Source: Escherichia phage BEU33. From it: DNA of 44,050 bases. Position 1 is the first letter of the stretch; each line of letters opens with the position of its first letter. The notes beneath the pieces were generated by a model. The model saw nothing but the letters and a program-made list of their open reading frames with translations. It ran no database searches and was not told where the DNA came from. A program made the position numbers and the translations under genes. Of this stretch, positions 4,341 to 41,272 are shown piece after piece. The stretch is taken from the sequence record OM632667.1. One strand, 5' to 3'.

Positions 4341-4346
4341 AACTGA

Positions 4347-4375
4347 ATAGTACCCTATTATATTGGTGTGTGCAA
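4347..4375 (-). promoter_or_regulatory. promoter-like module TTGCAC-N17-TACTAT on minus strand
   Basis: Same hexamers and spacing as modules at 13582-13610, 37491-37519, 38709-38737; here it faces the terminator, so function is unclear. Confidence 0.3.
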
Positions 4376-4427
4376 ACTATTTATTTACGTATTCCAGTTA
4401 TTCCACTCAATTGTAAATGTTGGAATA

Positions 4428-4443
4428 AACTATTCGAATAGTT
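4428..4443. promoter_or_regulatory. perfect 16-bp palindrome AACTATTCGAATAGTT, candidate operator
   Basis: Exact inverted repeat; overlaps the -35 of the promoter at 4442-4470; half-site ACTATTC recurs in other promoter modules. Confidence 0.5.
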
Positions 4444-4470
4444 GACTTTTCACTGAAAATGTGCTAAGCT
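4442..4470 (+). promoter_or_regulatory. sigma70-like promoter TTGACT-N17-TAAGCT
   Basis: Hexamers and 17-bp spacer read directly; -10 is weak. Confidence 0.45.
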
Positions 4471-4517
4471 CCACCTGAGCTTGTGAAGTATGAACAAGCG
4501 ACCGCGGCGCGGGCAGG
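4465..4517 (+). repeat. 53-bp exact direct repeat, copy 1 (copy 2 at 37402-37454)
   Basis: Identical 53-mer TAAGCTCCACCTGAGCTTGTGAAGTATGAACAAGCGACCGCGGCGCGGGCAGG at both loci. Confidence 0.85.
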
Positions 4518-4677
4518 TAACGGAGCGGGACGTAAGTCCTGAGTGTAGTTACGCTGACGCGTTCGGAAGGGCCATACTCTATTGCTTGTGTAAAAAGTAA
4601 CTGGTTTACTGAGATTACGCCGTTTCTATGTTTAAATTATAAGGACTAGCGCCCCGCTTTAAGGCGGGGCTTTACTT
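4477..4677 (+). ncRNA. candidate small RNA or regulatory leader
   Basis: About 200 nt between promoter 4442-4470 and terminator 4651-4677 with no ORF of 60 aa or more; begins with the 53-bp repeat. Confidence 0.3.
4651..4677 (+). terminator. rho-independent terminator GCCCCGC-tttaag-GCGGGGC plus TTTACTT
   Basis: Perfect 7-bp GC stem followed by T-rich tract. Confidence 0.65.
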
Positions 4678-4694
4678 ATCGAGAAAGGGGAAAC

Positions 4695-5081
4695 ATGAAT
4701 CTTAAAGCAACTGTCGTGGCAGGAGCATGTTTCATCATCCTGGCTTACACACACGGCATTTATCAGTACCGCAGCGGCTGGCACGAAGGCCGCGCTAATC
4801 TCGTTTCGCAGCAACAGCAGAAAGCACAGGCCGAGTTAGCGAAGAAAACACAACGGCAGCAGCAAGATGAATCAAAGGCCGCCGCCGCTGACAACGAAGG
4901 CAAGACGAAATCAGAGGTGATTACCCGTGAAGTCGTTAAGTACATTAAAACGCCTGGTCGCAGCGTGTGCACTTTTGACGATGCTCGCGTCCTGCTCAAG
5001 TCCCGCGCCGTCGCCAACGCCAATTCCATCTCCGGATACGACGATGATGCAGCCGCCGTGCAAGCTGGCGCCACCAAGTAG
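4695..5081 (+). CDS. i-spanin (Rz-like)
   Basis: N-terminal transmembrane segment then Q/A/K-rich coiled-coil-like region; contains an embedded +1 lipoprotein ORF; RBS AAAGGGG. Confidence 0.65.
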   Translation: MNLKATVVAGACFIILAYTHGIYQYRSGWHEGRANLVSQQQQKAQAELAKKTQRQQQDESKAAAADNEGKTKSEVITREVVKYIKTPGRSVCTFDDARVLLKSRAVANANSISGYDDDAAAVQAGATK

Positions 5082-5190
5082 TGACGCGGACGAGGATTTA
5101 GCTATCGACGTTCAGAACGCCGAATGCGTACGGCAACTGAGACTGAAAGTGTTCATGTTGCAGGATTACGTGAGGAATATTCTGGAATAG
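4927..5190 (+). CDS. o-spanin (Rz1-like outer-membrane lipoprotein)
   Basis: Signal peptide with lipobox LASC, proline-rich mature part; starts in +1 frame inside Rz and runs past its stop; GTG start with RBS GAGGTG. Confidence 0.6.
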   Translation: MKSLSTLKRLVAACALLTMLASCSSPAPSPTPIPSPDTTMMQPPCKLAPPSSDADEDLAIDVQNAECVRQLRLKVFMLQDYVRNILE

Positions 5191-5272
5191 TTGCCTTGCA
5201 TGTTGGAATAATTTATTCTTGACATGTAAATCCGGGTGGCCCGGATTCCAACGTCCAGGGGACATACTGACT

Positions 5273-5974
5273 ATGAATCGTTTTTTACGTTATCCGTTCC
5301 AGGAAGAAGCTGGAGCAGAAGATAAAGCTGGTGGCGGTGACGCTCCTAAAATGTTCACCGCTGAAGAAGTTCAGGCGCTGATTGAGAAAGAAGTTGCCGG
5401 GCTTAAGGCCAATCAGGAAGCATTGCTGGCGGAGAAGAAAGAAGCCGCCCGTAAAGCAAAAGAGGCCGAAGAAGAACGGCAGCGTGCGCACCAGGAGGCG
5501 TTAAAGGCCGCCGGTAAGATGGACGAGTTTGAAAAGACGATTCGTAGCCAGTATGACCCGGTGTTAGCCGAGAAAGATGGCCGCATCTCCAAAATGGCAG
5601 AGCGCATCCTCGGCAGCGAACGTAAAGCGGTGCTAGGCTCTTTCGCGGGTGACTTTATTACCCCGGAAGCAGTGGACATCCTTGCGCCGTTCGTTAAGAC
5701 TGAGTTCGAAGGTGATGATGTGGTTACTAAGTTTGTCGGCGCAGACGGTAACGTAATCACGACTGACCCGGAACAGTTCCGCAAATACCTGCGCGAACAC
5801 AAAGCGTTTTCGCATTTGATTAAAGCAAATGCAGCTTCCGGCGGCGGGGCTTCCGGTGGCAAAGGCGGCGGGGCCGCACCAGCGTTTAAAGACATGAGTG
5901 AAGCAGAGCGTTTAGCCCTGTATAAATCGAACCCTGCCGAATTTGAACGGCAACTTAAAGCCCTGAGGAAATAA
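5273..5974 (+). CDS. scaffolding protein
   Basis: Charged A/E/K-rich helical-looking protein immediately upstream of major capsid gene; ATG 5273 preferred over TTG 5219. Confidence 0.5.
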   Translation: MNRFLRYPFQEEAGAEDKAGGGDAPKMFTAEEVQALIEKEVAGLKANQEALLAEKKEAARKAKEAEEERQRAHQEALKAAGKMDEFEKTIRSQYDPVLAEKDGRISKMAERILGSERKAVLGSFAGDFITPEAVDILAPFVKTEFEGDDVVTKFVGADGNVITTDPEQFRKYLREHKAFSHLIKANAASGGGASGGKGGGAAPAFKDMSEAERLALYKSNPAEFERQLKALRK

Positions 5975-5976
5975 TA

Positions 5977-7026
5977 ATGGCAATTACCACTATCGGCGAT
6001 ATCGTAACTGGCAACATCCCGGTCCTGGCGTCTTATATGACCGAGGACCCGGTAGAAAAAACCGCGTTCTTCCAGTCTGGTATTCTCACCCCGACCCCAT
6101 ACGCCGCCGAGATTGCCCGCGGCCCGTCCAACGTCGCTAATATTCCTTTCTGGAAAGCGATTGATACCTCTATCGAGCCGAACTACTCGAACGACGTATA
6201 CCAGGACATCGCCACCCCGCGTAACGTGCAGACCGGCGAGATGATGGCGCGCGTTGCGTACCTGAACGAAGGTTTCGGTCAGGCGGATTTGACCGTTGAA
6301 CTGACCAGCCAGAACCCGCTGCAATCCGTAGCGTCACGTCTGGATAACTTCTGGCAGCGTCAGGCACAACGCCGTCTGATTGCTACCGCGCTCGGGCTGT
6401 ACAATGACAACGTAGCCGCTACCGACGCATACCACGAGCAGAATGACATGGTAATCGACGTGTCTGCTACTCTGGGCTTCGATGCGGGCGCGTTCATCGA
6501 CGCTACCCAGACTATGGGCGATGCTCTGATGGGCAACGGCGGTGAAGTGCTGGGGGCTATCGCGATGCATAGCTTCGTTTATGCGCAGGCACGTAAGCAG
6601 CAGCTTATCGACTTCATCCGTGACGCGGACAACAACACCATGTTCGCCACCTACCAGGGCTACCGCGTGATTGTTGACGACAGCATGACCGTAGTCGGCA
6701 CTGGCCCGACCCGTAAGTTCATCTCCATCATCTTCGGCAACGGCGCTATCGGTTACGGTGAAGGTTCTCCGTCCAACCCGCTGGAATACGAGCGCGAAGC
6801 GTCCCGCGGCAACGGCGGCGGCGTTGAAACCCTGTGGACCCGTAAGACCTGGTTGCTACATCCGTTTGGTTACAGCTTCACCAGCGCGGTAATCACTGGC
6901 AACGGTACCGAGACTATCGCCCGCTCTGCTTCATGGCAGGACCTGGCGAACGCCTCCAACTGGAACCGTGTGGTTGACCGTAAGCATGTACCGATTGCCT
7001 TCCTGGTAACTGGTGTCAGGGCTTAA
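5977..7026 (+). CDS. major capsid protein
   Basis: 349-aa ORF after scaffold, followed by a strong terminator; typical position and size. Confidence 0.7.
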   Translation: MAITTIGDIVTGNIPVLASYMTEDPVEKTAFFQSGILTPTPYAAEIARGPSNVANIPFWKAIDTSIEPNYSNDVYQDIATPRNVQTGEMMARVAYLNEGFGQADLTVELTSQNPLQSVASRLDNFWQRQAQRRLIATALGLYNDNVAATDAYHEQNDMVIDVSATLGFDAGAFIDATQTMGDALMGNGGEVLGAIAMHSFVYAQARKQQLIDFIRDADNNTMFATYQGYRVIVDDSMTVVGTGPTRKFISIIFGNGAIGYGEGSPSNPLEYEREASRGNGGGVETLWTRKTWLLHPFGYSFTSAVITGNGTETIARSASWQDLANASNWNRVVDRKHVPIAFLVTGVRA

Positions 7027-7041
7027 GGTTAAGCTATAATC

Positions 7042-7070
7042 GAGAGGGACTTCGGTCCCTCTTTTCATTT
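7042..7070 (+). terminator. rho-independent terminator AGAGGGAC-ttcg-GTCCCTCT plus TTTCATTT
   Basis: 8-bp stem with tetraloop and U tract after capsid gene. Confidence 0.8.
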
Positions 7071-7087
7071 ACTAAGAGGATTCCTCA

Positions 7088-7429
7088 ATGGCAGACGTAT
7101 TGAAACGACGCATCACCGGCGTCTCCGCTGACGCCCCGGGCGCTAAGATTGACATGGCGACTATTTCTCCTGCGTCTTTCTCTCCCGCGCTGGCGGCTAC
7201 TACCGCAGTGACCACAGGTGAAACTATGACGCTGACCGTAACCGTAGCTGGCGGTCTGGAGCCGTATTCTTACCAGTGGTATAAGAATAACAACGCTATC
7301 GCCGGGGCTAACGCGGCTACCTACGCTAAAGCGTCAACCACTACCGCTGATTCTGGTACGTATAAAGTGGTTGTTCACGATGTGTATGGTAATATTATCT
7401 CCAGCAGCACTGTAGCAACTGTGTCTTAA
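7088..7429 (+). CDS. Ig-like domain protein, possible head decoration
   Basis: Motif YQWYKNN..DSGTYKV typical of Ig-like domains; RBS AAGAGGA. Confidence 0.5.
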   Translation: MADVLKRRITGVSADAPGAKIDMATISPASFSPALAATTAVTTGETMTLTVTVAGGLEPYSYQWYKNNNAIAGANAATYAKASTTTADSGTYKVVVHDVYGNIISSSTVATVS

Positions 7430-7433
7430 TACA

Positions 7434-7451
7434 ACGGCCCTTCGGGGCCGT
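7434..7451 (+). other. stem-loop ACGGCCC-ttcg-GGGCCGT without U tract
   Basis: Perfect 7-bp stem after Ig-like gene; no T-tract, so more likely a stabilising hairpin than a terminator. Confidence 0.4.
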
Positions 7452-7465
7452 AATAAGGAAAGGTC

Positions 7466-7645
7466 ATGGCAGATAATTATGTAATCCGCGAAAAGTACAC
7501 CCACGTTGATATTGTAGACGGTCAGGTGATGCCTGTTCGCGGTGTGGTAGAAGCGGATGAACTGGTTGCGACTCAACCGGACAACGAAGAAGCGCACAAC
7601 AACGGCGGTGGTGCTAAGCGTCGTCGCCGTAAATCAGAGGAATAA
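7466..7645 (+). CDS. hypothetical 59-aa protein with basic C-terminal tail
   Basis: Below ORF-track cutoff; strong RBS GGAAAGG; fills gap between 7429 and 7649. Confidence 0.35.
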   Translation: MADNYVIREKYTHVDIVDGQVMPVRGVVEADELVATQPDNEEAHNNGGGAKRRRRKSEE

Positions 7646-7648
7646 TTT

Positions 7649-8161
7649 ATGCCGCTAATCGTGGAAGACGGGTCGATAGTACCTAACGCCGACAGTTACA
7701 TTAGTCTGGCTGACGCCCGCGCGTTAGCGGCTAATTACGGTCTTGAGTTACCCGCAGACGATACTGCCACCGAAGTAGCCTTGCGCAACGGCGCTACTTA
7801 TGTCGGGCTTGCAGAACCGCAGATGTGCGGCCGCCGTGTGTCCGCCGAGCAGTCCCTGGCGTACCCCCGCACCGGCGTTACGTTAAACGGGTTCCCGGTG
7901 GTCAACAACGCCATTCCGAAACAGGTGATTCTTGCGCAGGTAATCGCTGCCGCTACATATGGCGAGGGCACCGAAGTCCGGGCTAACTCAGACGGTCGCG
8001 CCGTGCAGACCGAGCGTGTCGAGGGTGCGGTAACAGTGACCTACTTCAACAATGGCAACAGTGGCGCTACGACCGCGATTACCGCTGCTGACGACGCTTT
8101 ACGCCCGTTATTGTGTGGCGGTCTTAACAATGGTTTCTCGTTTAACGTGTACCGGGGTTAA
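7649..8161 (+). CDS. head-tail connector protein (gp6-like)
   Basis: Position after capsid genes and size; weak N-terminal similarity pattern only. Confidence 0.4.
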   Translation: MPLIVEDGSIVPNADSYISLADARALAANYGLELPADDTATEVALRNGATYVGLAEPQMCGRRVSAEQSLAYPRTGVTLNGFPVVNNAIPKQVILAQVIAAATYGEGTEVRANSDGRAVQTERVEGAVTVTYFNNGNSGATTAITAADDALRPLLCGGLNNGFSFNVYRG

Positions 8162-8163
8162 AA

Positions 8164-8778
8164 ATGGCGAAGACTAAATCAGAGATATTCACGCTAATCG
8201 GTTCCGAGCTACCGGACAACACGACCGGACTTATTACGCCTGCGAAGTTGCGCGGGGTATTAACCCAGATGGCTGACTCACCTATTTACGCCACTCCGGG
8301 TGTTAAAGAGGTTGAAGTTCTCCGCGCTGCGTCGACAGTAGCGCAAGCGCCTACCGCAGTAGATACGGCGTTGCAGGTATCGTTCGGCTCTGCTCAGGGT
8401 AGTGCATCTGACCCGGTAATGATTAATGCTGCGGGGCTGGTTACATTCAACACCGCGGGTAACTATGCCGTTCGCATCAAGTTACAGGCCGGTCGCTCCG
8501 GCGCTAGCGGAACGTCTATCCTGTTGTCGCGTATCCTCATTAACGGCGCTCAGTACGGCTCACCAGCAGCTACGAAACTTGTTAGCTTGGAAACCACCAT
8601 CCCTATTGAATCCCGTGTAGTGATTAACCCAACCGCCGGGCAAACATTCGCCGTTCAGATTATGCGAGATAGCGCCGGGACTAACTTCGGAGGCGTATAC
8701 CCGCAGGTGGCTACTGTAACTGCATGGGGCACGGCACCGTCCGCGCTACTGGTTATTTCGAGACTGGAGGCTGCCTGA
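8164..8778 (+). CDS. hypothetical structural protein
   Basis: Tightly packed in head-tail joining cluster; no motif recognised. Confidence 0.4.
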   Translation: MAKTKSEIFTLIGSELPDNTTGLITPAKLRGVLTQMADSPIYATPGVKEVEVLRAASTVAQAPTAVDTALQVSFGSAQGSASDPVMINAAGLVTFNTAGNYAVRIKLQAGRSGASGTSILLSRILINGAQYGSPAATKLVSLETTIPIESRVVINPTAGQTFAVQIMRDSAGTNFGGVYPQVATVTAWGTAPSALLVISRLEAA

Positions 8779-9942: not shown

Positions 9943-9944
9943 AT

Positions 9945-11111: not shown

Positions 11112-11115
11112 AACT

Positions 11116-11140
11116 AAGGCCCCTTTCGGGGCCTTTTTCT
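11116..11140. terminator. bidirectional terminator AAGGCCCC-tttc-GGGGCCTT
   Basis: GC stem flanked by T-tracts on both strands, between convergent genes. Confidence 0.8.
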
Positions 11141-13566: not shown

Positions 13567-13581
13567 CGTTGGTGTAAGTGA

Positions 13582-13610
13582 ATAGTACGCTATTATATTG
13601 GGGAGTGCAA
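13582..13610 (-). promoter_or_regulatory. promoter TTGCAC-N17-TACTAT driving the minus-strand island
   Basis: Hexamers and spacing read on minus strand; -10 ends about 15 nt upstream of the Imm-like start codon. Confidence 0.5.
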
Positions 13611-13717
13611 GTAGTGTGCTAGAATAATTTTGCGCCTAGTGTCGCACACGAAAAGCGGGTGGTTCCCGTCTGGCGCATTTCCTTTAACCAGTAACCTCTT
13701 AACCAAAGGATTAAAGA

Positions 13718-23690: not shown

Positions 23691-23716
23691 AAGGCCCCGA
23701 AAGGGGCCTTTTCTCT
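23691..23716. terminator. bidirectional terminator AAGGCCCC-gaaa-GGGGCCTT
   Basis: Same stem as 4313 and 11116 terminators; T-tracts on both sides; at the convergence of structural and replication operons. Confidence 0.75.
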
Positions 23717-26924: not shown

Positions 26925-27212
26925 CTAACTATAATAGTTCGCTATTAGGGCGTCAACCTGTTTAAACGAACCAACGACAAAAACATTAGCACCACGCTTA
27001 CGCATCCGCTCGTGCTCCCGTAACTGGTGTGGATCCGGCTTCGTGCTTTCGTCTTTCTTTATCTCGACGAACCAGATGACGCCGCCGGGGAGAATTACCA
27101 GCAGGTCAGGGGCGCCGGAACGTCCTTCGTAGGAAAGTTTACGAACGAGGCCACCAATGGCCTCGAATCGGTCTTTTGCGTATTTCTGTATTTTGCCCTC
27201 AGGCGTACTCAT
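26925..27212 (-). CDS. VRR-NUC domain nuclease
   Basis: GAPDLLVILPGGVIWFVEIKKD pattern of the PD-(D/E)xK VRR-NUC fold; ATG 27212 with RBS GAGGGG preferred over GTG 27248. Confidence 0.7.
   Translation of the reverse strand: MSTPEGKIQKYAKDRFEAIGGLVRKLSYEGRSGAPDLLVILPGGVIWFVEIKKDESTKPDPHQLREHERMRKRGANVFVVGSFKQVDALIANYYS
26928..26956 (-). promoter_or_regulatory. sigma70-like promoter TTGACG-N17-TATAGT on minus strand
   Basis: Hexamers read on minus strand; overlaps the 3' end of the VRR-NUC gene and precedes the gene at 26894. Confidence 0.55.
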
Positions 27213-29962: not shown

Positions 29963-29990
29963 AAGGCCCAATGAAGGGCCTTAGTTAAAT
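29963..29990 (-). terminator. stem-loop AAGGCCC-N6-GGGCCTT with T-rich tail on minus strand, possible attenuator
   Basis: Lies between SSB-like gene and the polymerase operon on the same strand. Confidence 0.4.
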
Positions 29991-30693: not shown

Positions 30694-30722
30694 ACTATAA
30701 TAGCTAACTATTCAGGTGTCAA
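30694..30722 (-). promoter_or_regulatory. sigma70-like promoter TTGACA-N17-TATAGT on minus strand
   Basis: Consensus -35 with 17-bp spacer, about 60 nt upstream of the SSB-like start. Confidence 0.6.
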
Positions 30723-30911: not shown

Positions 30912-32149
30912 TCTAAATCCTCCTCTGTAACTTGATTCCACTCAGGACGTTTGTCATCCGCCGTTGCGACGCATGGCGCACCGGGCTTACGGGTAATGAA
31001 GTCTTTCAGTTCTTCTTCCGGTACAATTTTAACCGCTTCGGTCGGTGTCATAAGAACTACCTTTTGCAGCATAGTACCGTACTTCTCGAATACTGCATCG
31101 GTATCTTTCCACGCACGATTACCCGGGCGTCCTTCAACCAGTTTATACCCCGGCACTTTCTTACCGGAATGTAACGCAGCAGCCATAGCTTTCTCAACCT
31201 TGTCGATGTGCTGGCGCAACAACGGCAACTTCTCATACTCAGCTACGAGTTGCTCTGGCGTAAGCTCAAGTGCAAAGTCGTCCTCCAGTTCTTCCGCCAG
31301 CCCCGCGTTAACGGTTTTTGTACGCGCTGCGCATTGTTCAGAGAACCGACACCACTGACAACCATCTACCGACGGCTTGAAGTCCGACGCTTTCAGGTTC
31401 TTTTTACCCCGGAAATAGGCATCAAGAGCCAACAGCGCCCGTTTCTGTGCAAACTTAGCGAACAGTTCCAGACCTTCAACCGAGATGTCCCACTCCGATG
31501 CACCGCCAGCGTACGGCTGGAAGATGACCAGTCGAACGGTTGTTATGCTATAACGTCTCTTGAGTCGGCGATAAACGCCGAGAGCATAAAGCATAAGCTG
31601 CTTGTTTTCTTTCGCTTCGACACGATGCCGCCCGGTTTTCAGGTCGCAGATGATAAGCATGTGTTCGTCGGTGTTAGCCAGTTCCTGTATGGCAACAAGG
31701 TCAGCAGTTCCGAACGTCTCAACGCCTTCATACCCCGGATGCAATACCTCAGTAAGATTAACACGCATTTCCAGCTTGGCGTAAGTCGCTATATCGATAA
31801 TCGCCTTGCAGTAGTCGGTGTACTTGCGCACCTGCTCAATCATGTCCGCCGTAATCAGTACCGCGCCTTTCATCGGGCTGATTAGTGCCTTAATCTGGCC
31901 TTTGCCTTCATCCAGCACGTAAGCACCGACTTCACGCTCTAACGGCAGCGCAGTTCCGCGAATATAAGCGTTGAGATGGACCTCAGCTATGGTGTGCATT
32001 GCCGTGCCTAATACAGCGGCTTTACCTGACGTGTTAGGGATATCTTTTTCACAGGCCAGTGATGCCGCGCAACTTAGCCACTTTTTAGCCCCTGACGGCG
32101 ACAGTAAGGCATGTACATCGTTATTGCCGCCGCGTTCTTTAAGAATCAT
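30908..32149 (-). CDS. PD-(D/E)xK nuclease, DUF2800 / Cas4-like exonuclease
   Basis: N-terminal LSPSGAKKWLSCAAS, ICDLK (D/E)xK motif, C-terminal Cys cluster CQWCRFSEQC. Confidence 0.65.
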   Translation of the reverse strand: MILKERGGNNDVHALLSPSGAKKWLSCAASLACEKDIPNTSGKAAVLGTAMHTIAEVHLNAYIRGTALPLEREVGAYVLDEGKGQIKALISPMKGAVLITADMIEQVRKYTDYCKAIIDIATYAKLEMRVNLTEVLHPGYEGVETFGTADLVAIQELANTDEHMLIICDLKTGRHRVEAKENKQLMLYALGVYRRLKRRYSITTVRLVIFQPYAGGASEWDISVEGLELFAKFAQKRALLALDAYFRGKKNLKASDFKPSVDGCQWCRFSEQCAARTKTVNAGLAEELEDDFALELTPEQLVAEYEKLPLLRQHIDKVEKAMAAALHSGKKVPGYKLVEGRPGNRAWKDTDAVFEKYGTMLQKVVLMTPTEAVKIVPEEELKDFITRKPGAPCVATADDKRPEWNQVTEEDLE

Positions 32150-32508
32150 CGTAAACTCTCCAAATACAAGTTTAATGCCTGTAACTGTTCTTCTGTAGGA
32201 ATGAAAGAATCATCGCGATGTAAGTCGCTTAACTGTTGCAACATTCCTGCGAACTGACGTCTTGCGTCAACAGCGTCCATGTGATGCTTTTCACTTTTAT
32301 ATATTAATGTTTTCGGGTAATCCTCAAGCCTGCCAGACGATTTATTCACGCGGAGCGCACGAGCTTCATGCACAATGTGAATGTACTTTTTGCCGTTTTG
32401 TAACACAGTAGCTACGCCGCTGCTCTTTCTGCGGTCGCCGACTGTGTAAACCTTGTCGCCACTACGCAGATTAAGCCACCATTTATCGGTCATACCCTGT
32501 TCTCCCAC
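32146..32508 (-). CDS. hypothetical protein
   Basis: ORF translationally coupled in the minus operon. Confidence 0.4.
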   Translation of the reverse strand: MGEQGMTDKWWLNLRSGDKVYTVGDRRKSSGVATVLQNGKKYIHIVHEARALRVNKSSGRLEDYPKTLIYKSEKHHMDAVDARRQFAGMLQQLSDLHRDDSFIPTEEQLQALNLYLESLR

Positions 32509-33308: not shown

Positions 33309-33330
33309 TTGTTTCTCCTGTTTATTTAGG

Positions 33331-33558: not shown

Positions 33559-33586
33559 ATCTTCACCTCTCGTTTGGTATGGGCTA

Positions 33587-33616
33587 ACTATAATAGCGAA
33601 CTATTCATGATGTCAA
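33587..33616 (-). promoter_or_regulatory. sigma70-like promoter TTGACA-N18-TATAGT on minus strand
   Basis: Consensus -35, about 25 nt upstream of the 33558 start; divergent from the HTH gene. Confidence 0.6.
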
Positions 33617-33680
33617 TGGGCTTTTCTAAAATAATTAATATGGTACTATTCACACATCAACTGACTAAGGAGTAATTGAC

Positions 33681-33896
33681 ATGCAACCATCCGAACTAGG
33701 CATCCGTGTAGAGCAACGCCGTAAAGAACTCGGCATCTCCCAGCGCCGTCTGGCGGTCCTGACCGGCGTTTCCCAGGGCGCAATTAACCAGCTGGCTCTC
33801 GGTGTAACTCAGGACGTCCGCCCGGCAACGTTGTTTAAACTGGCGGAAGTGCTGGAAGTAGACGCTAAGTGGCTGGCGTTCGGTGAAGGGGCTTGA
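33681..33896 (+). CDS. XRE-family HTH regulator (Cro-like)
   Basis: 71 aa with ISQRRLAVLTGVSQGAINQL helix-turn-helix; RBS AAGGAG; lone plus-strand gene between leftward operons. Confidence 0.75.
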   Translation: MQPSELGIRVEQRRKELGISQRRLAVLTGVSQGAINQLALGVTQDVRPATLFKLAEVLEVDAKWLAFGEGA

Positions 33897-33909
33897 CGCC
33901 CCTTTCTTT

Positions 33910-34107: not shown

Positions 34108-34189
34108 TCCAAATCCTCCTCTGTCACTGTCAACATTTCATTCGGTTCGTATATTGTCTTTGGAATCTTGTTATCAGTTATGTTTTCAC

Positions 34190-36542: not shown

Positions 36543-36600
36543 GTTGTATTTCCTTCAGCAAGTAATTTGGCCTCGGCGTTCACCGCGTCGGGGCTTTCTT

Positions 36601-36834
36601 TTATTCCAGGTCTTCTAAAGTAGCGGTCATTCCGCGAACTTCAGCAAAGGCACTATATTTCCCGCCAACATTTTTCACGACGCCAGATTTAACCAGCACT
36701 TTTAACGACCCTTCAATAATGACGGAACTATAGTACTTAAAATAACTGCGGCGCAAGTCGATAACGCTGCACGACCCTTTTTTACGTGTCAACGAAACGA
36801 CCGCCGTAAATACGCGTGACTGAAACTCGGTCAT
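36601..36834 (-). CDS. hypothetical protein
   Basis: 77-aa ORF coupled to the downstream primase operon. Confidence 0.4.
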   Translation of the reverse strand: MTEFQSRVFTAVVSLTRKKGSCSVIDLRRSYFKYYSSVIIEGSLKVLVKSGVVKNVGGKYSAFAEVRGMTATLEDLE

Positions 36835-37001
36835 TTCACGTTCTCCTTAATCCACGCTTCCACTTTCTCCGGGTCGAACGTACCGGGCTGCCGGCGACCC
36901 ATAATGCGGATACAACAATCAGGGAACCTCCCACTCTTTAACCAGTTATTAAGCGTGCGGCGAGTAACCCCGATACGCTCAGCTACTTCATTCTGTGTCA
37001 T
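36831..37001 (-). CDS. AlpA/Xis-like HTH DNA-binding protein
   Basis: MTQNEVAERIGVTRRTLNNWLKSGRFP pattern; ATG 37001 with GAGGG RBS preferred over TTG 37034. Confidence 0.55.
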   Translation of the reverse strand: MTQNEVAERIGVTRRTLNNWLKSGRFPDCCIRIMGRRQPGTFDPEKVEAWIKENVK

Positions 37002-37401
37002 TCTCAAACCCTCATTATCAGTTAACGAAACCAAGTATACATTGCGAATAATGGGAAATCAAACATAATCGCACCTATTGACATTATGAAAATCTTCGTT
37101 TAAGGTGCTTCTATATCTTAGTTACTTTGATTCCTGTTCACCTTGTAATACCTGCTTGAAACGCAGCGGCGCCAAAGCGCCAGCGAAGTGTTAAGCAGCA
37201 GATTACTGAACATAAGAATTACCGTAACTTTCCTTCCGTAGTATCTCTGGTTGCCCTGGGCAAGCTCTATTCTCATCGGCAGCATATCTCTTAAGTATCT
37301 GATAATTAAAAGTTTCTATAGTTGCCGTGAGCAAGGTAGAGAGTACTTCACTCCGCTGGGGTGGGCTAACGCCCACCCACTGCGTTGCGTACTCTTTTAA
37401 G

Positions 37402-37454
37402 TAAGCTCCACCTGAGCTTGTGAAGTATGAACAAGCGACCGCGGCGCGGGCAGG
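37402..37454 (+). repeat. 53-bp exact direct repeat, copy 2
   Basis: Identical to 4465-4517; lies in the divergent intergenic region 37035-37553. Confidence 0.85.
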
Positions 37455-37490
37455 AAACGAAAGAATCACAACGGCAACGTAACTATTCTC

Positions 37491-37519
37491 TTGCACACCC
37501 CAACATAATAGGATACTAT
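37491..37519 (+). promoter_or_regulatory. promoter TTGCAC-N17-TACTAT
   Basis: -10 ends about 35 nt upstream of ATG 37554. Confidence 0.5.
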
Positions 37520-37553
37520 TCACTTATCGAAACGAGACAGAGGAGTGAGGGTT

Positions 37554-37745
37554 ATGTTTAAGAAGGGTCAGTTGGTTAAAACTAAACGCGGAGGGCAATA
37601 TGTATTAGTGTTGCAGGACGAGAGCGAGTATGACGAGGATAATCTGGTTGACGTATGGGGTCTGGTAAGAAAGAAAACTGGGTTCGCCTCACGCGATAAT
37701 TTAGAACTCATCGGCAACAATTTTAAATTCAAAGGGGTGAAGTGA
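37554..37745 (+). CDS. hypothetical protein
   Basis: ATG 37554 with RBS GAGGAGTGAGGG. Confidence 0.4.
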   Translation: MFKKGQLVKTKRGGQYVLVLQDESEYDEDNLVDVWGLVRKKTGFASRDNLELIGNNFKFKGVK

Positions 37746-37951
37746 TGGAAGAATTAATTTGTATTGAATCCCGCCAGGATTGGTTTGTGAAAGGTAACAA
37801 ATATTCGTCAGGAGTATATTACGACGGCCGTCGATACGTTTTAGATGAAGACGGTGATGAATGGGATTTAGAGGACACTGTGGGCGAGACTTTAACCGTT
37901 AGTTTTCTTCAATGTTGTTTCCGCATCATTCACAACGGCATCGAATCATGA
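37745..37951 (+). CDS. hypothetical protein
   Basis: ATG with RBS AAAGGGGTGA. Confidence 0.4.
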   Translation: MEELICIESRQDWFVKGNKYSSGVYYDGRRYVLDEDGDEWDLEDTVGETLTVSFLQCCFRIIHNGIES

Positions 37952-38033
37952 GGCTCGTGCCGACGACTCTGAGGGAGGTTGCCGTGGATAATATTTTAAT
38001 TGTCAGCGCTGTTTATGTGGGGTGGAGGTTGAT

Positions 38034-38228
38034 ATGAGTCCATATAATGAATTCCGCTTACGCCGTCTTGTTGGTGGGCTGCGCGCCGCCGAGTTTGGCG
38101 TTGAATGTTGGGAAAAGGCGAAGTACACCCCATGGAAGTCGTGGAATTTGGCCCACGCTAAGGCGGTAGCGCAGTACCGGGAGTACAAGTTAAATAGTTT
38201 CCTAAAGCACCACGGGGTAGAGCTATGA
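38034..38228 (+). CDS. hypothetical protein
   Basis: ATG 38034 with RBS GGAGG. Confidence 0.4.
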   Translation: MSPYNEFRLRRLVGGLRAAEFGVECWEKAKYTPWKSWNLAHAKAVAQYREYKLNSFLKHHGVEL

Positions 38229-38368
38229 GAGAAGCATTCGAACGGTGGGCCGTCGTCGAGGGTCTGCCGGTTAACAAGGGTTCAAAGAAAGAGTACCTGA
38301 ACGTTAAGACGCGTCTTGCGTGGCGGGCGTGGAAAGCTGGTGTGCAGTATGTGATGAATACGAGGTGA
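38225..38368 (+). CDS. hypothetical 47-aa protein
   Basis: Below ORF-track cutoff; ATGA overlap with upstream stop; fills gap. Confidence 0.3.
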   Translation: MREAFERWAVVEGLPVNKGSKKEYLNVKTRLAWRAWKAGVQYVMNTR

Positions 38369-38371
38369 TTT

Positions 38372-38560
38372 ATGGGTGAGTGGATTAAGTGTAGTGAGCG
38401 GATGCCGGAGCCTTATGAATACGTTCTTGTAACTGATTGTTTTGTTGGCTGTGAGGTTATGCGTGTTAATTCGGATGGCTACTGGGGACCAGCGAAGAGT
38501 TTATACCACGGCGATATCTCCCACTGGATGCCCTTACCTGAGCCACCGGCGCCGGTGTAA
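38372..38560 (+). CDS. hypothetical protein, DUF551-like
   Basis: C-terminal HWMPLPEPP motif; RBS GAGGTGA. Confidence 0.4.
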   Translation: MGEWIKCSERMPEPYEYVLVTDCFVGCEVMRVNSDGYWGPAKSLYHGDISHWMPLPEPPAPV

Positions 38561-38594
38561 CAGGTCAATAGTTTACTATTTGGCTTTGTGACTT

Positions 38595-38630
38595 ACGCTG
38601 CTACACAGCAGCGTATCATTTTTCTCATTT
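38595..38630 (+). terminator. rho-independent terminator ACGCTGCT-acac-AGCAGCGT plus T-tract
   Basis: Perfect 8-bp stem then ATCATTTTTCTCATTTTT. Confidence 0.65.
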
Positions 38631-38708
38631 TTGTTCTATTTCACCAAACGCAACAATCGAAGCGACTATTGCGGGAGATGCAACAATACAAACACCAATA
38701 AAATTTAC

Positions 38709-38737
38709 TTGCACGCTAAGATAGAATAGGCTACTAT
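38709..38737 (+). promoter_or_regulatory. promoter TTGCAC-N17-TACTAT
   Basis: Same hexamers and spacing as 37491-37519; precedes gene 38794. Confidence 0.5.
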
Positions 38738-38793
38738 TCATTTACACAAACGAGAGGAGAGACAGAAGATGAATGTAGTGGCGAGGGAAGGGG

Positions 38794-39282
38794 ATGGGGA
38801 TGGTGAGTAGCAAAAACGAAGTATTCGAGTACCTGATTGACCAGTTACGGCAGCACGTAAATAGCCACCCGCACAAGCAGCAGTGCGAAGACCTGGCGCA
38901 TGAGGTGCAGTCACTCAAGAATCAGTTACGTGATGCGTCAGCACTGGTGGCGGAGTTACATGAAACAATAAAACTAATGAACGAGGACTTTAACCGTGCA
39001 ACCGGGCGAGGTGGCTCACTGCCGAAAGGGGAGAGCTACGTAGTAGGTGAACATGGGCCCGAGCAACCCGGTTGCCGTAAGGAAGATACTCAGGAATGCG
39101 AGCACTCTTGGATTATTATGCTTGGGTTGTTTCTCAGCGAAGGCAATACGAACAACGTTCCTGGTAGTGAGCTTTGCTCTAAATGTGGTAAACGTGAGTG
39201 GGACGACAAGGTATATAAACCGAAAAACGATACTCAGGAATGTGAGCATGAGTGGAGATGTAAGACGGTTTTTTGGCAATAG
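38794..39282 (+). CDS. hypothetical Cys/His-rich protein with internal repeated DTQECEH(S/E)W motif
   Basis: Two copies of the motif about 45 residues apart; RBS GAGGGAAGGGG. Confidence 0.45.
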   Translation: MGMVSSKNEVFEYLIDQLRQHVNSHPHKQQCEDLAHEVQSLKNQLRDASALVAELHETIKLMNEDFNRATGRGGSLPKGESYVVGEHGPEQPGCRKEDTQECEHSWIIMLGLFLSEGNTNNVPGSELCSKCGKREWDDKVYKPKNDTQECEHEWRCKTVFWQ

Positions 39283-39327
39283 ACCTGGTGTTCCGTATTG
39301 CCGTAAATGTGGTGTGGAGGCGAAGCA

Positions 39328-39531
39328 ATGACCAGCATCTTATTTATCTGGGTACTATCCGCGGGCCAGATGCAACTAGCGGCATCAGAAACGTTTTATT
39401 CGATGGAGGCGTGCCAGTCAGCGGCGCGTGCCGCAGAGAACGCGCACTTCCTGTTTCAGGGCGACAAGCCCATCGATTCAGAGGTACGCGCTATCTGCTC
39501 ACCTAAGCGACTTGGTAAACAGGAGAAGTGA
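39328..39531 (+). CDS. small protein with N-terminal signal-peptide-like segment
   Basis: MTSILFIWVLSAGQMQLAASE hydrophobic N-terminus; RBS GGAGG. Confidence 0.4.
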   Translation: MTSILFIWVLSAGQMQLAASETFYSMEACQSAARAAENAHFLFQGDKPIDSEVRAICSPKRLGKQEK

Positions 39532-39533
39532 TT

Positions 39534-39716
39534 ATGGTGCGGAGATATACCTACGACCAGATATTCGGGTTTACTCCTGATGTTGAGGGCGTGTTAGTGC
39601 TTTACGAAGATTACGCGAAACTTGAAGCTGAGTTACAGAAATACAAAGACCAGTACCCTGATTATGTCGAGTGCGCGAACTGTGGGTCGGTTACACATGT
39701 GGAGGGAGTGGAGTGA
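39534..39716 (+). CDS. hypothetical protein
   Basis: RBS AGGAG; C-terminal CANCGS. Confidence 0.35.
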   Translation: MVRRYTYDQIFGFTPDVEGVLVLYEDYAKLEAELQKYKDQYPDYVECANCGSVTHVEGVE

Positions 39717-40009
39717 TGTCGTTAGCAACTGACATCCTGAAACGAAGCGGCCTTGCGCCGCTGTCACCGAGAGCGAAGACACGTATACACAAGCGTCGCC
39801 GTAACGTGCTGTACCCAGAGATTCAGGACAGACGTAAAGCTATCCGCGCCTGTGGATTCCAGAACGGGAAGGCTGTGAATCTCGGTGAGTTTAAAACGCA
39901 GGAGCGCGCTGCAATCGCTAATCGGTTATTTAATTACTGGAAATCGCTGGGATACGATGATATTCCGACGAAACCACAGAGACGACAATACATCTGGCGT
40001 CATAAATAA
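39716..40009 (+). CDS. hypothetical DNA-binding protein, AP2-like domain
   Basis: GKAVNLGEFKTQERAAIANRLF resembles the AP2 fold signature; ATG overlaps upstream TGA. Confidence 0.35.
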   Translation: MSLATDILKRSGLAPLSPRAKTRIHKRRRNVLYPEIQDRRKAIRACGFQNGKAVNLGEFKTQERAAIANRLFNYWKSLGYDDIPTKPQRRQYIWRHK

Positions 40010-40039
40010 ACCGTTATTAAGATAATTCCTAACCGTGCT

Positions 40040-40079
40040 ATCCTCCAGTTACTGCATACTTAATACGCACCTGGAGGAT
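40040..40079 (+). promoter_or_regulatory. inverted repeat ATCCTCCAG-N22-CTGGAGGAT whose 3' arm contains the holin RBS
   Basis: Perfect 9-bp arms; GGAGG of the holin RBS is inside the 3' arm. Confidence 0.4.
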
Positions 40080-40084
40080 TCATC

Positions 40085-40393
40085 TTGGATAAATTTACTG
40101 AAACAGTGACAGGCTGGCTTCTCGCTGCCGCGCTAGCCGGAGGGGTAATCGGACTACGACAACATAAGTCTGTTATTTCTGGCCCCATCGACGGATTCTG
40201 CTTTATCGCAACCGGCTTCACTTGCGCTGTATTCGGCGCGCCTCTTGCCGCTCAATGGTTCGGTATTACCGGAGAGCGCGAGATAGCTGGCCTCGGATTC
40301 ATCATCGCAATTCTCTGGATGCCCATCTATTCCCGTCTCTCCGGTATCGTCTCTGGAGAATACATCGCTCGTCGAGGAGGCACAGATGAATGA
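40085..40393 (+). CDS. holin (three predicted TM segments)
   Basis: Three hydrophobic segments, charged C-terminus; first gene of lysis cassette; TTG start with GGAGG. Confidence 0.55.
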   Translation: MDKFTETVTGWLLAAALAGGVIGLRQHKSVISGPIDGFCFIATGFTCAVFGAPLAAQWFGITGEREIAGLGFIIAILWMPIYSRLSGIVSGEYIARRGGTDE

Positions 40394-40658
40394 GTTATTC
40401 TGGTTCGGTGGTATGCTGGCAATCGGGGGCACATCGCTGTTTAATGTGTATCATCCCAGCGTGGACGACGGATTATTTGGCCGGGTGCTCTATATCCTGA
40501 CTGCCATCGTCTGTGCTGCCGGATGTATCCACCTGTTACAGGGCAGCATGTCACCAACGCTGCCTGAGACGTTAATCACATTAGTTGCGCTGCGTCAGAT
40601 TCGCCAGGTGTGGCTGTCATACGGAGGACATAAGCGTGTCTCGAAATATTTCAGATAA
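40386..40658 (+). CDS. second holin-like membrane protein (holin or antiholin)
   Basis: Two hydrophobic segments; overlaps both holin stop and lysozyme start. Confidence 0.45.
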   Translation: MNELFWFGGMLAIGGTSLFNVYHPSVDDGLFGRVLYILTAIVCAAGCIHLLQGSMSPTLPETLITLVALRQIRQVWLSYGGHKRVSKYFR

Positions 40659-41124
40659 TGGATTGCATTTTACCGCCGCGTTCGAGGGATTCCGAGGAAC
40701 TGCGTATCGCGCTACACCGAATGAGAAGTACCTGACTATTGGGTATGGAAGCTATGGCCCGCATGTTAAGGCGGGGCAGACCATCACTCCAGGACAAGGC
40801 CTCCTGTTACTTAATCGCGATATGGCTAAAGCCGTAGCTGCGGTTGATGCGGCAGCGCACCATTCACTGACACAGGCACAGTTCGACGCTGTGTGTGACC
40901 TGGTCTACAACGCAGGCGCTGGCGTGATTGCCGCTACCACGGGCACAGGTAAGGCGCTGCGTTCTGGTGACATCGAGACGCTGCGGGCTAAGCTGACACT
41001 GTTCATCAACCAGAACGGCAGACCACTACTCGGCCTGCGTCGCCGTACAGCAGGTCGTCTGGCGCTGTTTGACGGTAAACCGTGGCAAGAGGCGGAGGCA
41101 ATTGGGCGCGCGGTGAAAGGTTGA
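40636..41124 (+). CDS. endolysin, lysozyme (GH24-like muramidase)
   Basis: Pattern ISDNGLHFTAAFEGFRG..YLTIGYG..QFDAVCDLVYNAG resembles the P22 gp19/T4 lysozyme family; GTG 40636 with RBS GGAGGA preferred. Confidence 0.85.
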   Translation: MSRNISDNGLHFTAAFEGFRGTAYRATPNEKYLTIGYGSYGPHVKAGQTITPGQGLLLLNRDMAKAVAAVDAAAHHSLTQAQFDAVCDLVYNAGAGVIAATTGTGKALRSGDIETLRAKLTLFINQNGRPLLGLRRRTAGRLALFDGKPWQEAEAIGRAVKG

Positions 41125-41190
41125 CACCTAAGACTAATCCGACGATACTTAAATCACCTCCTGTTCCATCCCTCTGCTCTCCAGTTTTAT

Positions 41191-41221
41191 CCCGGCCCTG
41201 ACCCAGCCGGGATTTTTTTTT
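41191..41221 (+). terminator. rho-independent terminator CCCGGC-N9-GCCGGG plus T9
   Basis: GC stem followed by ATTTTTTTTT after the lysis cassette. Confidence 0.7.
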
Positions 41222-41243
41222 ATCTATTTTCGGTAATGACTAG

Positions 41244-41272
41244 TTGACTATTACCCTCGACCCTATTATATT
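41244..41272 (+). promoter_or_regulatory. sigma70-like promoter TTGACT-N17-TATATT
   Basis: Good hexamers; precedes gene 41306. Confidence 0.6.

Follow-up and report, generated by a model that had tools for sequence, protein, structure and literature searches.

Promoter-embedded palindromes in the BEU33 window

The DNA analysed here (the window, 44,050 nucleotides) comes from Escherichia phage BEU33, a lytic E. coli phage of the genus Kagunavirus, and is 100% identical to phage BEU35 and 95% identical to phage Golestan. A set of its promoters (Table 1) shares a 14-bp inverted repeat, AATAG-N4-CTATT. This is the core of a recurring promoter/operator module which a first-pass annotation, made from the sequence alone, had counted at least nine times without setting out the repeat in full. 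All ten sequences quoted there are correctly placed and on the correct strands, among them the partial element TACTATTCAC (33644-33653) upstream of the Cro-like gene. The recurrence stands, while the count rises to 12 sites (the copy at 38567 had been missed; that at 2776 is weak and uncertain).

The window has eight exact copies, starting at 4346, 13581, 26933, 30699, 33592, 37507, 38567 and 38725; shuffles that preserve dinucleotide composition predict 0.03. Allowing up to one mismatch gave 12 copies against 1.09 expected; the four additional ones start at 2776, 4437, 33637 and 41239. In an unbiased scan of all inverted repeats with 5-mer arms and spacers of 0-8 nt, AATAG-N4-CTATT ranks first both in the window and in Golestan. 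In the annotated Golestan genome, of which 6.4% is intergenic, six of the eight palindrome copies lie wholly in intergenic DNA and one straddles a gene end; shuffling the intergenic DNA alone yields a mean of 0.0055 copies. The sites are palindromic, far more numerous than chance predicts, and lie in promoters.

Table 1. Promoters, palindromic sites and regulator genes in the window. Sigma-70 values are consensus positions matched.
Feature	Position	Strand	Sequence	Remarks
Weak, uncertain site	2776-2789	+	TATAGTATGCTATT	1 mismatch; no -35; directly past terminator 2756-2771, ahead of head-morphogenesis gene
Class B promoter	4346-4375	-	TTGCAC-N17-TACTAT	points straight into bidirectional terminator 4313-4333
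Operator	4346-4359		AATAGGGTACTATT
16-bp palindrome	4428-4443		CTATT-CG-AATAG core	abuts class C promoter 4442-4470; overlapped by near-operator 4437-4450
Near-operator	4437-4450		AATAGTTGACTTTT	1 mismatch; overlaps -35 of 4442-4470
Class C promoter	4442-4470 (4437-4470 with near-operator)	+	TTGACT-N17-TAAGCT	precedes spanin, scaffold and capsid genes
Class B promoter	13581-13610	-	TTGCAC-N17-TACTAT	heads operon of superinfection-immunity protein (Imm_superinfect), repair exonuclease and polynucleotide kinase
Operator	13581-13594		AATAGCGTACTATT
Class A promoter	26928-26956	-	TTGACG-N17-TATAGT	sigma-70 10/12; overlaps final codons of upstream gene; heads operon of 63-aa ORF, DNA methyltransferase, helicase and primase (names from Golestan)
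Operator	26933-26946		AATAGCGAACTATT	entirely inside spacer
Class A promoter	30694-30722	-	TTGACA-N17-TATAGT	sigma-70 11/12; heads Enc34-type ssDNA-binding protein and DNA polymerase operon
Operator	30699-30712		AATAGTTAGCTATT	in spacer
Class A promoter	33587-33616	-	TTGACA-N18-TATAGT	sigma-70 11/12; divergent from cro-like gene; heads exonuclease-containing operon
Operator	33592-33605		AATAGTTCGCTATT	in promoter 33587-33616
Degenerate operator	33637-33650	+	AATATGGTACTATT	1 mismatch; overlaps -10 TACTAT (33644-33649)
cro-like gene	33681-33896	+		71 aa, HTH_3/XRE family; Pfam HTH_3 47.2 bits (cutoff 23)
Terminator hairpin	33885-33905			follows cro-like gene
AlpA-like gene	36831-37034	-		HTH_17 30.4 bits (cutoff 27); probable start ATG at 37001
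Promoter of AlpA-like gene	37062-37034	-	TTGATT-N17-TATACT	no operator
Class B promoter	37491-37520	+	TTGCAC-N17-TACTAT	heads rightward small-ORF cluster
Operator	37507-37520		AATAGGATACTATT	overlaps -10
Exact palindrome	38567-38580		AATAGTTTACTATT	no recognisable -35 or -10; between gene end and terminator 38594-38615
Class B promoter	38709-38738	+	TTGCAC-N17-TACTAT	heads operon beginning at 38794
Operator	38725-38738		AATAGGCTACTATT	over -10
Near-operator	41239-41252		ACTAGTTGACTATT	1 mismatch; overlaps -35 of 41244-41272
Class C promoter	41244-41272 (41239-41272 with near-operator)	+	TTGACT-N17-TATATT	sigma-70 10/12; heads rightward operon towards terminase genes

The palindrome is found in three registers: within the -35/-10 spacer, its first base 4-5 nt past the -35 hexamer (class A); over the -10, beginning 10 nt after the -35 (class B); and overlapping the -35 (class C). 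Promoters that carry it always point the same way as the downstream genes. In Golestan, the small genes gp05 and gp06, both absent from BEU33, are transcribed from the counterpart of the 4346-4375 promoter. The promoter-less copy at 38567 lies 158 bp from the 38725 operator; of 20 Kagunavirus sequences, only 6 have it as a full palindrome. The 4428-4443 element, which the first-pass annotation had grouped with the module through a shared half-site, is indeed a perfect 16-bp palindrome. However, its half-sites run in divergent order, which sets it apart from operators with the AATAG-N4-CTATT geometry, and the divergent arrangement by itself shows no excess over chance.

In an independent sigma-70 consensus scan of 24-44 kb, the three TTGACA-type sites rank best (11, 11 and 10 of 12 matches), and the 41244 promoter also reaches 10; promoter-like sites in total are fewer than in the scan's own shuffles, so that the ranking alone is informative. 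The class B promoters match only 7 of the 12 positions by a hand count from the sequence. The earlier reading of the modules as sigma-70-type promoters is supported; they are ordinary host-type promoters.

The repeat as such was already known, its palindromic and operator nature was not. PHIRE "phage promoters" in the genome papers of Golestan and fBC-Eco01 are 20-mers identical in sequence to the BEU33 sites and at homologous positions. Table S4 of the Golestan paper ("phage-specific promoter") includes TAATAGCGTACTATTCACTT and similar 20-mers, and a counterpart of the weak 2776 site; Table S2 of the fBC-Eco01 paper has the consensus tgAATAGTa-ccTATTat-T, and the counterpart of the 4442-4470 promoter appears there as host promoter HP1. 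Both papers list the 20-mers only, leaving the dyad symmetry, an operator reading and a link to the cro-like gene unmentioned, and both miss the class A sites of the polymerase and methyltransferase operons. Following PHIRE usage, the fBC-Eco01 paper labels its 20-mers "phage RNAP promoters". We regard transcription by a phage-encoded polymerase as effectively refuted: the fBC-Eco01 genome has no such gene, none is annotated among the 78 genes of Golestan, each large ORF of the window has a counterpart among the annotated Golestan genes, with another function, and the sites have canonical sigma-70 hexamers spaced by 17-18 bp. A literature search found no published binding, footprint or transcription-start data for this phage subfamily.

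Conservation of the half-sites

When 25 Kagunavirus loci are compared with the window, differences amount to 2.3% per column in the half-sites, 8.4% in the N4 and 11.6% in the flanks, making the half-sites 4-5 times less variable than their surroundings. At the promoter divergent from cro, neither half-site varies among 24 distinct Kagunavirus sequences, in which the N4 takes five forms and the adjacent spacer about ten. The degenerate operator at 33637 is likewise invariant in 24 Kagunavirus sequences. In the related lineage L047 the repeat reads AATAC-N4-GTATT, both arms having altered together, and TS6-like phages have the form ATTA(G/C)-N4-(G/C)TAAT. Jerseyvirus keeps AATAG-N4-CTATT, where distances of 7 and 11 nt from the -35 to the start of the palindrome also occur, and its phage PVP-SE2 has an arrangement equal to that at 41239-41272. 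In the promoters of Serratia phage Tsm2, the exact palindrome occurs at four sites against 0.24 expected.

Could the sites simply be paralogues, produced when one promoter-leader cassette was duplicated or recombined around the genome, that serve no dedicated regulator? The palindrome would then be incidental to A/T-rich, -10-like sequence, or something that RNA polymerase itself senses. The likeness between copies does reach past the palindrome, into the TTGCAC box, spacer bases and a C/A-rich leader (...ACACCAAACGAGAGGAG...), the -10 TATAGT itself resembles a half-site, and both PHIRE papers treat the sites merely as repeated promoters. We nevertheless consider this unlikely, given the conservation of the half-sites over the N4 and neighbouring bases. 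In addition, the exact copies have identical arms and a different central 4 bp in every copy, and between classes the palindrome is displaced by at least 6 bp relative to both hexamers. The three registers, the conserved half-sites, the promoter-less copy at 38567 and the paired arm change in L047 mean that the 14-mer is under a constraint of its own, separate from that on the -35 and -10 hexamers. Operators of dimeric HTH proteins typically are dyad-symmetric 14-mers of this kind. The earlier suggestion of a regulator site embedded in each promoter is thus supported by the dyad, its registers and its conservation.

Candidate regulators

Among about 30 small ORFs examined, only two encode clear HTH proteins, the Cro-like and the AlpA-like protein, both named as candidates in the first-pass annotation. 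The Cro-like protein lacks a C-terminal domain. Among PDB sequences it comes closest to 434 Cro (E 2e-6, with residues 6-68 aligned to 4-64), and its AlphaFold2 model (pLDDT 81.5) has 2cro as best fold match (TM 0.73/0.79), which places the protein in the 434-Cro family. The gene is present in each examined lineage that has this promoter design, and genome searches of four lineages recovered it, alone among the HTH genes, in each. Its own promoter has a poor -35 in BEU33. Every lineage has a degenerate operator overlapping the -10 of this promoter, as autoregulation would predict; in BEU33 this putative autoregulatory site lies 45 bp, centre to centre, from the 33592 operator. Given the sequence and fold match to 434 Cro, the presence in every such lineage and the operator over its own -10, the binder of AATAG-N4-CTATT is most likely this small 434-Cro-like repressor. 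With each shifted half-site, in L047 and in TS6-like phages, the recognition helix of the Cro homologue differs too, a covariation which comes from a handful of lineages and is asymmetric at some sites.

The AlpA-like protein is the second candidate. It is a genuine HTH protein, and the operator-free promoter of its gene means that it could be freely made. Kagunavirus and Jerseyvirus are the two genera with exactly AATAG-N4-CTATT, and across them the protein is 70-98% identical. The Cro homologues of these genera are only about 50% identical and their recognition helices differ at four positions (QGAINQ against QSLITH) despite the shared palindrome, so that correlation alone would favour AlpA. 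However, tblastn searches of two complete genomes, those of Serratia phage Tsm2 and Salmonella phage TS6, gave no AlpA-like homologue; both genomes encode a Cro homologue. The cro-centred loci L043-L050, of which several are truncated, gave none either. Tsm2 still has the exact palindrome in its promoters, and the remaining lineages keep a palindrome at the same promoter position. Excisionase/AlpA-type winged helices, moreover, usually bind direct or irregular repeats rather than 14-bp dyads. Binding by the AlpA-like protein is therefore quite unlikely, and only the Cro-like half of the earlier suggestion is favoured.

A conserved enterobacterial transcription factor, exploited by the phages, could account for the same motif in phages of three host genera (E. 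coli, Salmonella and Serratia). We know of no E. coli regulator whose consensus matches AATAG-N4-CTATT. TS6-like and Jersey-like phages both infect Salmonella and have different half-sites, which argues for a phage-specified binder and makes a host factor highly improbable.

A probable Cro-type regulon and its relation to known systems

We think it probable that BEU33 has a Cro-type repressor regulon, in which a dimer of the 71-aa protein represses sigma-70 promoters through embedded 14-bp operators. The identity of the binder, repression upon binding and the order of shut-off are inferred. Host sigma-70 RNA polymerase would read the promoters, and the dimer would occupy operators within or over the promoter core, sterically occluding the polymerase. 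The promoters of replication/recombination operons, small-ORF clusters and the superinfection-immunity operon, which carry the seven perfect operators, would be curbed first as the protein accumulates. The three weaker, one-mismatch operators lie at the cro promoter, where binding may provide negative autoregulation, and over the -35 of two promoters leading into structural and packaging genes. Going by the Golestan annotation, the genome contains no CI partner, integrase or lysogeny module; the system would therefore restrain early and middle transcription during the lytic cycle rather than act as a lysis/lysogeny switch. The design appears real, yet fairly conventional as gene control.

The closest known system is that of phage 434, with its P22 Cro and c2 relatives. 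434 Cro is also a five-helix, single-domain HTH protein of 71 aa, and its operators are 14 bp long. Like the BEU33 sites, the 434 OR/OL operators are 14-bp dyads in which the outer bases are conserved and the centre varies. In both 434 and BEU33, the operator overlaps the promoter core and the gene is flanked by a divergent promoter pair with one operator on each side. The specificity differs, with half-sites AATAG in BEU33 and ACAA in 434, and recognition helices QGAINQ and QQSIQL, respectively. A closer lambdoid homologue, 44% identical and adjoining cI in Klebsiella phage GZ7, still has ACAA-N6-TTGT 14-mers in the cI-cro gap. Unlike 434, BEU33 is virulent and lacks the lysogeny functions as well as tandem OR1-OR3 triplets; instead, single operators are distributed over at least eight promoters across the entire 44-kb genome, in three registers. 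Restriction-modification controller (C) proteins with their C-boxes, and the Aca repressors that act on anti-CRISPR promoters, are likewise small XRE-type HTH dimers on palindromes inside strong promoters, where binding caps expression, and C.AhdI, C.BclI and C.Esp1396I are among the fold matches of the Cro-like model. Neither a restriction enzyme nor an anti-CRISPR context was identified in BEU33. Whereas C-protein and Aca systems control a single operon beside the regulator gene, BEU33 has one type of operator over many operons.

The dyad and the promoters that carry it

The window, 44,050 bp long, is the genome, complete or nearly so, of a virulent siphophage that belongs to the genus Kagunavirus in the subfamily Guernseyvirinae. 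The unannotated Escherichia phage BEU35 is 100% identical to it across the aligned parts and VB_EcoS-Golestan is ~95% identical; the RefSeq annotation of Golestan (78 genes) served as the gene map.

The first-pass annotation had described a promoter/operator module that recurs in intergenic regions on both strands. All sequences quoted there were found at their coordinates and on their strands, and the recurring module is confirmed and can be sharpened, as the element common to the sites is a 14-bp inverted repeat, AATAG-N4-CTATT (the dyad, or putative operator). The window contains 8 exact copies against 0.03 expected from dinucleotide-preserving shuffles, and 12 copies with at most one mismatch against 1.09 expected. 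An unbiased enumeration covering every inverted repeat of 5-mers spaced by 0-8 nt ranks the dyad top in both genomes, the window and Golestan; the only other recurrent inverted repeats are G+C-rich terminator stems. Only 6.4% of Golestan is intergenic; six of its eight exact dyads are nevertheless wholly intergenic, one lies across a stop codon and one within the last codons of a gene. Shuffles confined to the intergenic segments contain 0.0055 copies on average. When AATAGNNNNCTATTATAGT was scanned in IMG/VR, the matches listed were a mixture of Kagunavirus-sized contigs with several matches each and unrelated single matches.

A perfect palindrome is indeed present at 4428-4443, as had been reported. 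Its half-sites are not arranged as in the dyad, the order being reversed (CTATT-CG-AATAG). CTATT-N2-AATAG occurs once, and at least one match appeared in 65 of 100 shuffles, so that the reversed arrangement is without statistical support and was rejected as an operator. The element that matters here is an overlapping one-mismatch dyad at 4437-4450.

All promoter-associated dyads overlap a promoter core, and we classify them by register: within the -35/-10 spacer (class A), over the -10 (class B) or over the -35 (class C). Sigma-70 promoters have a TTGACA-like -35 and a TATAAT-like -10 spaced 16-18 bp apart, and the sites agree with this pattern at spacings of 17-18 bp. In class A (TTGAC(A/G), 4-5 nt, dyad, ATAGT) the 17-18-bp spacer is occupied by the dyad, which borders on the -10 TATAGT; in an independent consensus scan these were the best sigma-70-like sites between 24 and 44 kb, matching 11, 11 and 10 of 12 positions. 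In class B (TTGCAC, 10 nt, dyad) the right arm and the -10 TACTAT share bases, in the form TTGCAC-N17-TACTAT; only 7 of 12 consensus positions match, with TTG and TA...T retained. In class C, A(A/C)TAG-TTGA-CT(T/A)TT, the -35 TTGACT is inside the dyad. Dyads are single at each promoter, except for a pair 45 bp apart in the cro-divergent region. The promoter-type sites all face the next gene, with a Shine-Dalgarno sequence and start codon 25-45 nt further on, the exception being 4375->4347. One promoter, that of the AlpA-like/helicase-primase operon, is without a dyad, which means that the dyad set does not cover every promoter.

Promoters, dyads and neighbouring features in the window
Feature	Position	Strand	Description
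Class A promoter	26956->26928	-	heads methyltransferase, helicase, primase operon
Class A promoter	30722->30694	-	heads ssDNA-binding protein and DNA polymerase operon
Class A promoter	33616->33587	-	heads recombination/exonuclease operon
Class B promoter	37491	+	heads small-ORF cluster
Class B promoter	38709	+	heads small-ORF cluster
Class B promoter	13610	-	heads superinfection-immunity/repair operon
Class B promoter	4375->4347	-	nothing downstream but terminator
Promoter of the Cro-like gene	33637-33650 (dyad)		class B type; one-mismatch AATATGGTACTATT, poor -35
Class C promoter	4437		one-mismatch dyad; toward structural/packaging genes
Class C promoter	41239		one-mismatch dyad; toward structural/packaging genes
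Lone dyad	38567		exact, no recognisable promoter
Lone dyad	2776		weak, doubtful
AlpA-like/helicase-primase operon promoter	37062->37034	-	no dyad
Cro-like gene	33681-33896	+	71-aa HTH_3/XRE protein
AlpA-like gene	36831-37034	-	HTH_17 protein
Tandem repeat	38530-38566		short, GGTGTAACAGGT; directly upstream of the 38567 dyad
Bidirectional terminator hairpins	4313-4333, 11116-11135, ~23692-23711, ~29964-29983		AAGGCCCC-loop-GGGGCCTT; at junctions of convergent gene blocks
58-bp direct repeat	4465-4522, 37402-37459	+	98% identical; TAAGCTCCACCTGAGCTTGTGAAGTATGAACAAGCGACCGCGGCGCGGGCAGG(T/A)AACG
int-alpA RNA motif (Rfam RF02996)	13629-13693	+	36.6 bits, gathering score 35.8; in divergent gap between class B promoter 13610 and tail-assembly-chaperone gene 13718
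120-aa ORF	32146-32508	-	phage ProQ C-terminal-like domain, sub-threshold (25 bits, cutoff 27)

The repeat itself is already known as an observation. In Golestan, seven homologous 20-mers were found by PHIRE and called "conserved promoter sequences" (PMC7203180, Table S4); in fBC-Eco01, seven sites with the consensus tgAATAGTa-ccTATTat-T were attributed to an RNA polymerase encoded by the phage (PMC9825357, Table S2). The symmetry of the dyad, a role as operator and the Cro-like gene go unmentioned in both papers, and both miss some of the class A sites. None of the 78 genes annotated in Golestan codes for an RNA polymerase, an integrase or a CI-type repressor, nor do the window's large ORFs include a single-subunit RNA polymerase gene. 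The attribution of the fBC-Eco01 sites to a phage polymerase is thus unsupported, because no such gene exists.

Conservation of the dyad and its surroundings

The evidence points to the dyad as a constrained element in its own right. Within the window it starts 4, 5 or 10 nt past the -35 or overlaps it, and in the Jerseyvirus PVP-SE2 starts 7 and 11 nt past the -35 are also found; such a varying register would not be expected if the sequence were read by RNA polymerase. The eight exact paralogous copies have identical arms, and their central tetranucleotides are all distinct. Across 25 Kagunavirus loci, collected via the Cro protein and not via the motif, differences from the window amount to 2.3% of cells in the arms, 8.4% in N4 and 11.6% in the flanks. 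At the cro-divergent promoter, 24 distinct sequences share invariant arms, with 5 forms of N4 and ~10 forms of the adjacent spacer.

In more distant Guernseyvirinae-like lineages a dyad lies at the same place with altered arms. At L047, a cro-centred locus of another lineage, it reads AATAC-N4-GTATT, both arms having changed with symmetry kept. TS6-like phages carry an ATTA(G/C)-N4-(G/C)TAAT dyad and no copy of AATAG-N4-CTATT, and phages of the L043 type have a mixture of half-site types. The lone dyad at 38567 is weakened as proof of independence from promoters, since the full dyad is kept in only 6 of 20 relatives. The tandem repeat beside it varies from one to four copies at the homologous positions of the Kagunavirus loci L008-L032.

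Several further features surround the promoters. A C/A-rich leader, approximately (C/T)A(C/T)(A/C)(C/G)(A/C)AACGAGAG(G)AG, is common downstream of the 33587, 26928, 37519, 38737, 13582 and 41272 promoters and runs into the Shine-Dalgarno sequence. The leader after the 37491 promoter is nearly identical in Serratia phage Tsm2 (L007 from ~10111: ATCGAAACGAGACACGGGAGTAAGGGTTATG); promoter, operator and leader are thus conserved as one cassette. At 4313-4375 (-), the promoter 4375->4347 runs straight into the bidirectional terminator (4333-4313). In Golestan (L001 4415-4900), two small genes, gp05 and gp06, and the usual leader lie between promoter and terminator, and the two genomes diverge ~2 nt past the operator, near the predicted transcript start. 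This unit resembles a promoter-terminator slot without genes, or else a place where an inserted gene pair was precisely gained or lost.

It seems to us rather unlikely that these observations combine into a portable operator/promoter/C/A-rich-leader cassette of ~70 bp across the Guernseyvirinae, with 4313-4375 as a landing pad and with orthogonal repressor/operator pairs. If so, genes new to a phage would come under Cro control through the cassette, the gene-less unit would receive such genes, and the half-sites AATAG, AATAC and ATTAG/C, together with diverged Cro helices, would spare co-infecting relatives cross-regulation.

The 58-bp repeat folds as two hairpins, with a CCUG/CAGG stem closing them, and in one relative the second hairpin has a compensatory change (CCGC..GCGG to CCGT..ACGG). 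The copy at 4465-4522 and the -10 (TAAGCT) of the spanin/scaffold/capsid promoter begin at one and the same base, so that this copy would form the transcript's 5' leader; the second copy is present in only some Kagunavirus loci. The repeat may be a structured leader or a regulatory RNA of the late operon. Rfam gave no match for the promoter modules or the 58-bp repeat (window at the gathering threshold; 4380-4700 at E<=1).

Candidate binding proteins

Pfam scans of ~30 small ORFs yielded two clear sequence-specific DNA-binding candidates, the Cro-like and the AlpA-like protein; a NinH match was sub-threshold. The 120-aa ORF with the ProQ-like domain may encode an RNA-binding protein of the early operon. 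The Cro-like protein matches HTH_3 (PF01381) with 47.2 bits (cutoff 23, E 2.3e-12), and its best sequence match among solved structures is 434 Cro, at E 2e-6 over nearly the full length. Its AF2 model (pLDDT 81.5) has five helices, and the top fold match in the PDB is 2cro (TM 0.73/0.79, 38% identity). Its 71 residues thus hold the five-helix 434-Cro fold, and no oligomerisation or peptidase domain follows at the C terminus. Judging by the dyad symmetry, it would bind its operator as a dimer.

The first-pass annotation had proposed a regulator site embedded in each promoter and named both proteins as candidates. An embedded site in sigma-70-type promoters is supported, and the comparison of lineages favours the Cro-like over the AlpA-like protein. 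A Cro-like gene is found in every examined lineage with the operator-in-promoter design; by tblastn against the phage collection, Cro homologues turned up in 555 phage records. No AlpA-like homologue was detected in the complete Tsm2 and Salmonella phage TS6 genomes or in loci L043-L050, cro-centred loci of other lineages; the class A and B promoters of Tsm2 carry the exact AATAG-N4-CTATT (4 sites against 0.24 expected). Furthermore, the recognition helix of the Cro homologue differs where the half-site differs: QGAINQ in Kagunavirus and QGMLNH in Tsm2 go with AATAG, QSLITH in Jerseyvirus with a looser AATAG, QSAISH in TS6-like phages with ATTA(G/C), and QGGIGH in L047 with AATAC. One caveat speaks for the AlpA-like protein. 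Between Kagunavirus and Jerseyvirus, Cro is only ~50% identical, yet the dyad is common to both genera, whereas AlpA-like is 70-98% conserved. Of the two candidates, the Cro-like protein is by a clear margin the stronger.

The position of the gene also varies. In TS6 (L006 3874-4095) and Tsm2 (L007 6799-7032) the cro-like gene is the first of the helicase-primase operon, in the same direction. In Kagunavirus and Jerseyvirus it stands alone and convergent with this operon, where the AlpA-like gene comes first.

Proposed mechanism and comparison with known systems

Beyond the anatomy of the sites, their conservation and the protein family, we infer the following mechanism. On infection, host RNA polymerase would fire the dyad-bearing promoters. 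As the Cro-like dimer accumulates, it would bind to the perfect operators, which lie within or across promoter cores, and keep polymerase out, so that early and middle genes are transcribed less. More Cro-like protein would be needed before the imperfect operators respond, those of its own promoter and of the two promoters with a dyad over the -35. MerR-type operators place a dyad inside an over-long spacer of 19-20 bp and activate by DNA twisting, which the 17-18-bp spacers rule out here, and the dyad positions are incompatible with classical activation. A host-factor model was considered and set aside.

Few phages are isolated, and put forward for therapy against E. coli and Salmonella, as often as Kagunaviruses and Jerseyviruses. 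To our knowledge, their gene regulation is essentially unstudied, and a literature search for transcriptome, 5'-end or biochemical regulation studies of Guernseyvirinae, Jerseyvirus and Kagunavirus gave only papers of the genome-announcement type. If repression by the Cro-like protein is true, it offers a testable wiring diagram of one small repressor, ~12 operators and three promoter classes, and the published label "phage RNAP promoters" would be corrected. A "repressor" gene in such genomes would then not need to mean lysogeny, which is relevant to safety assessments, and the repressor and operators would provide compact parts with natural specificity variants. The use lies in annotation and engineering; given the familiar Cro-type mechanism, it would not surprise a specialist in phage regulation.

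With no single-subunit RNA polymerase gene, the sites do not correspond to T7-like phage-RNA-polymerase promoters. Nor is this the lambdoid CI/Cro lysis-lysogeny switch, with its divergent CI, tripartite OR/OL and integrase: CI, integrase and a second XRE protein are absent from the Golestan annotation and from the Pfam scans of small ORFs. The proposed role in the lytic cycle is like that of lambdoid Cro, the difference being the absent CI partner, so that no lysogeny decision would be involved. 434 Cro likewise has 71 residues, and its operators are dyads of 14 bp in which the outer bases are conserved and the centre varies. The dyad described here matches this geometry but not the half-site, which is ACAA in 434 and AATAG in this phage. 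A 44%-identical Cro homologue (recognition helix QQTIQQ) adjoins cI in the lambdoid Klebsiella phage GZ7, and the cI-cro gap contains ACAA-N6-TTGT 14-mers, found only in the locus of this lambdoid homologue; this ties the protein family to the 434-type operator. Taken together, the system is probably a multi-promoter repressor-operator system of the well-known Cro/434 type, here in a virulent phage.
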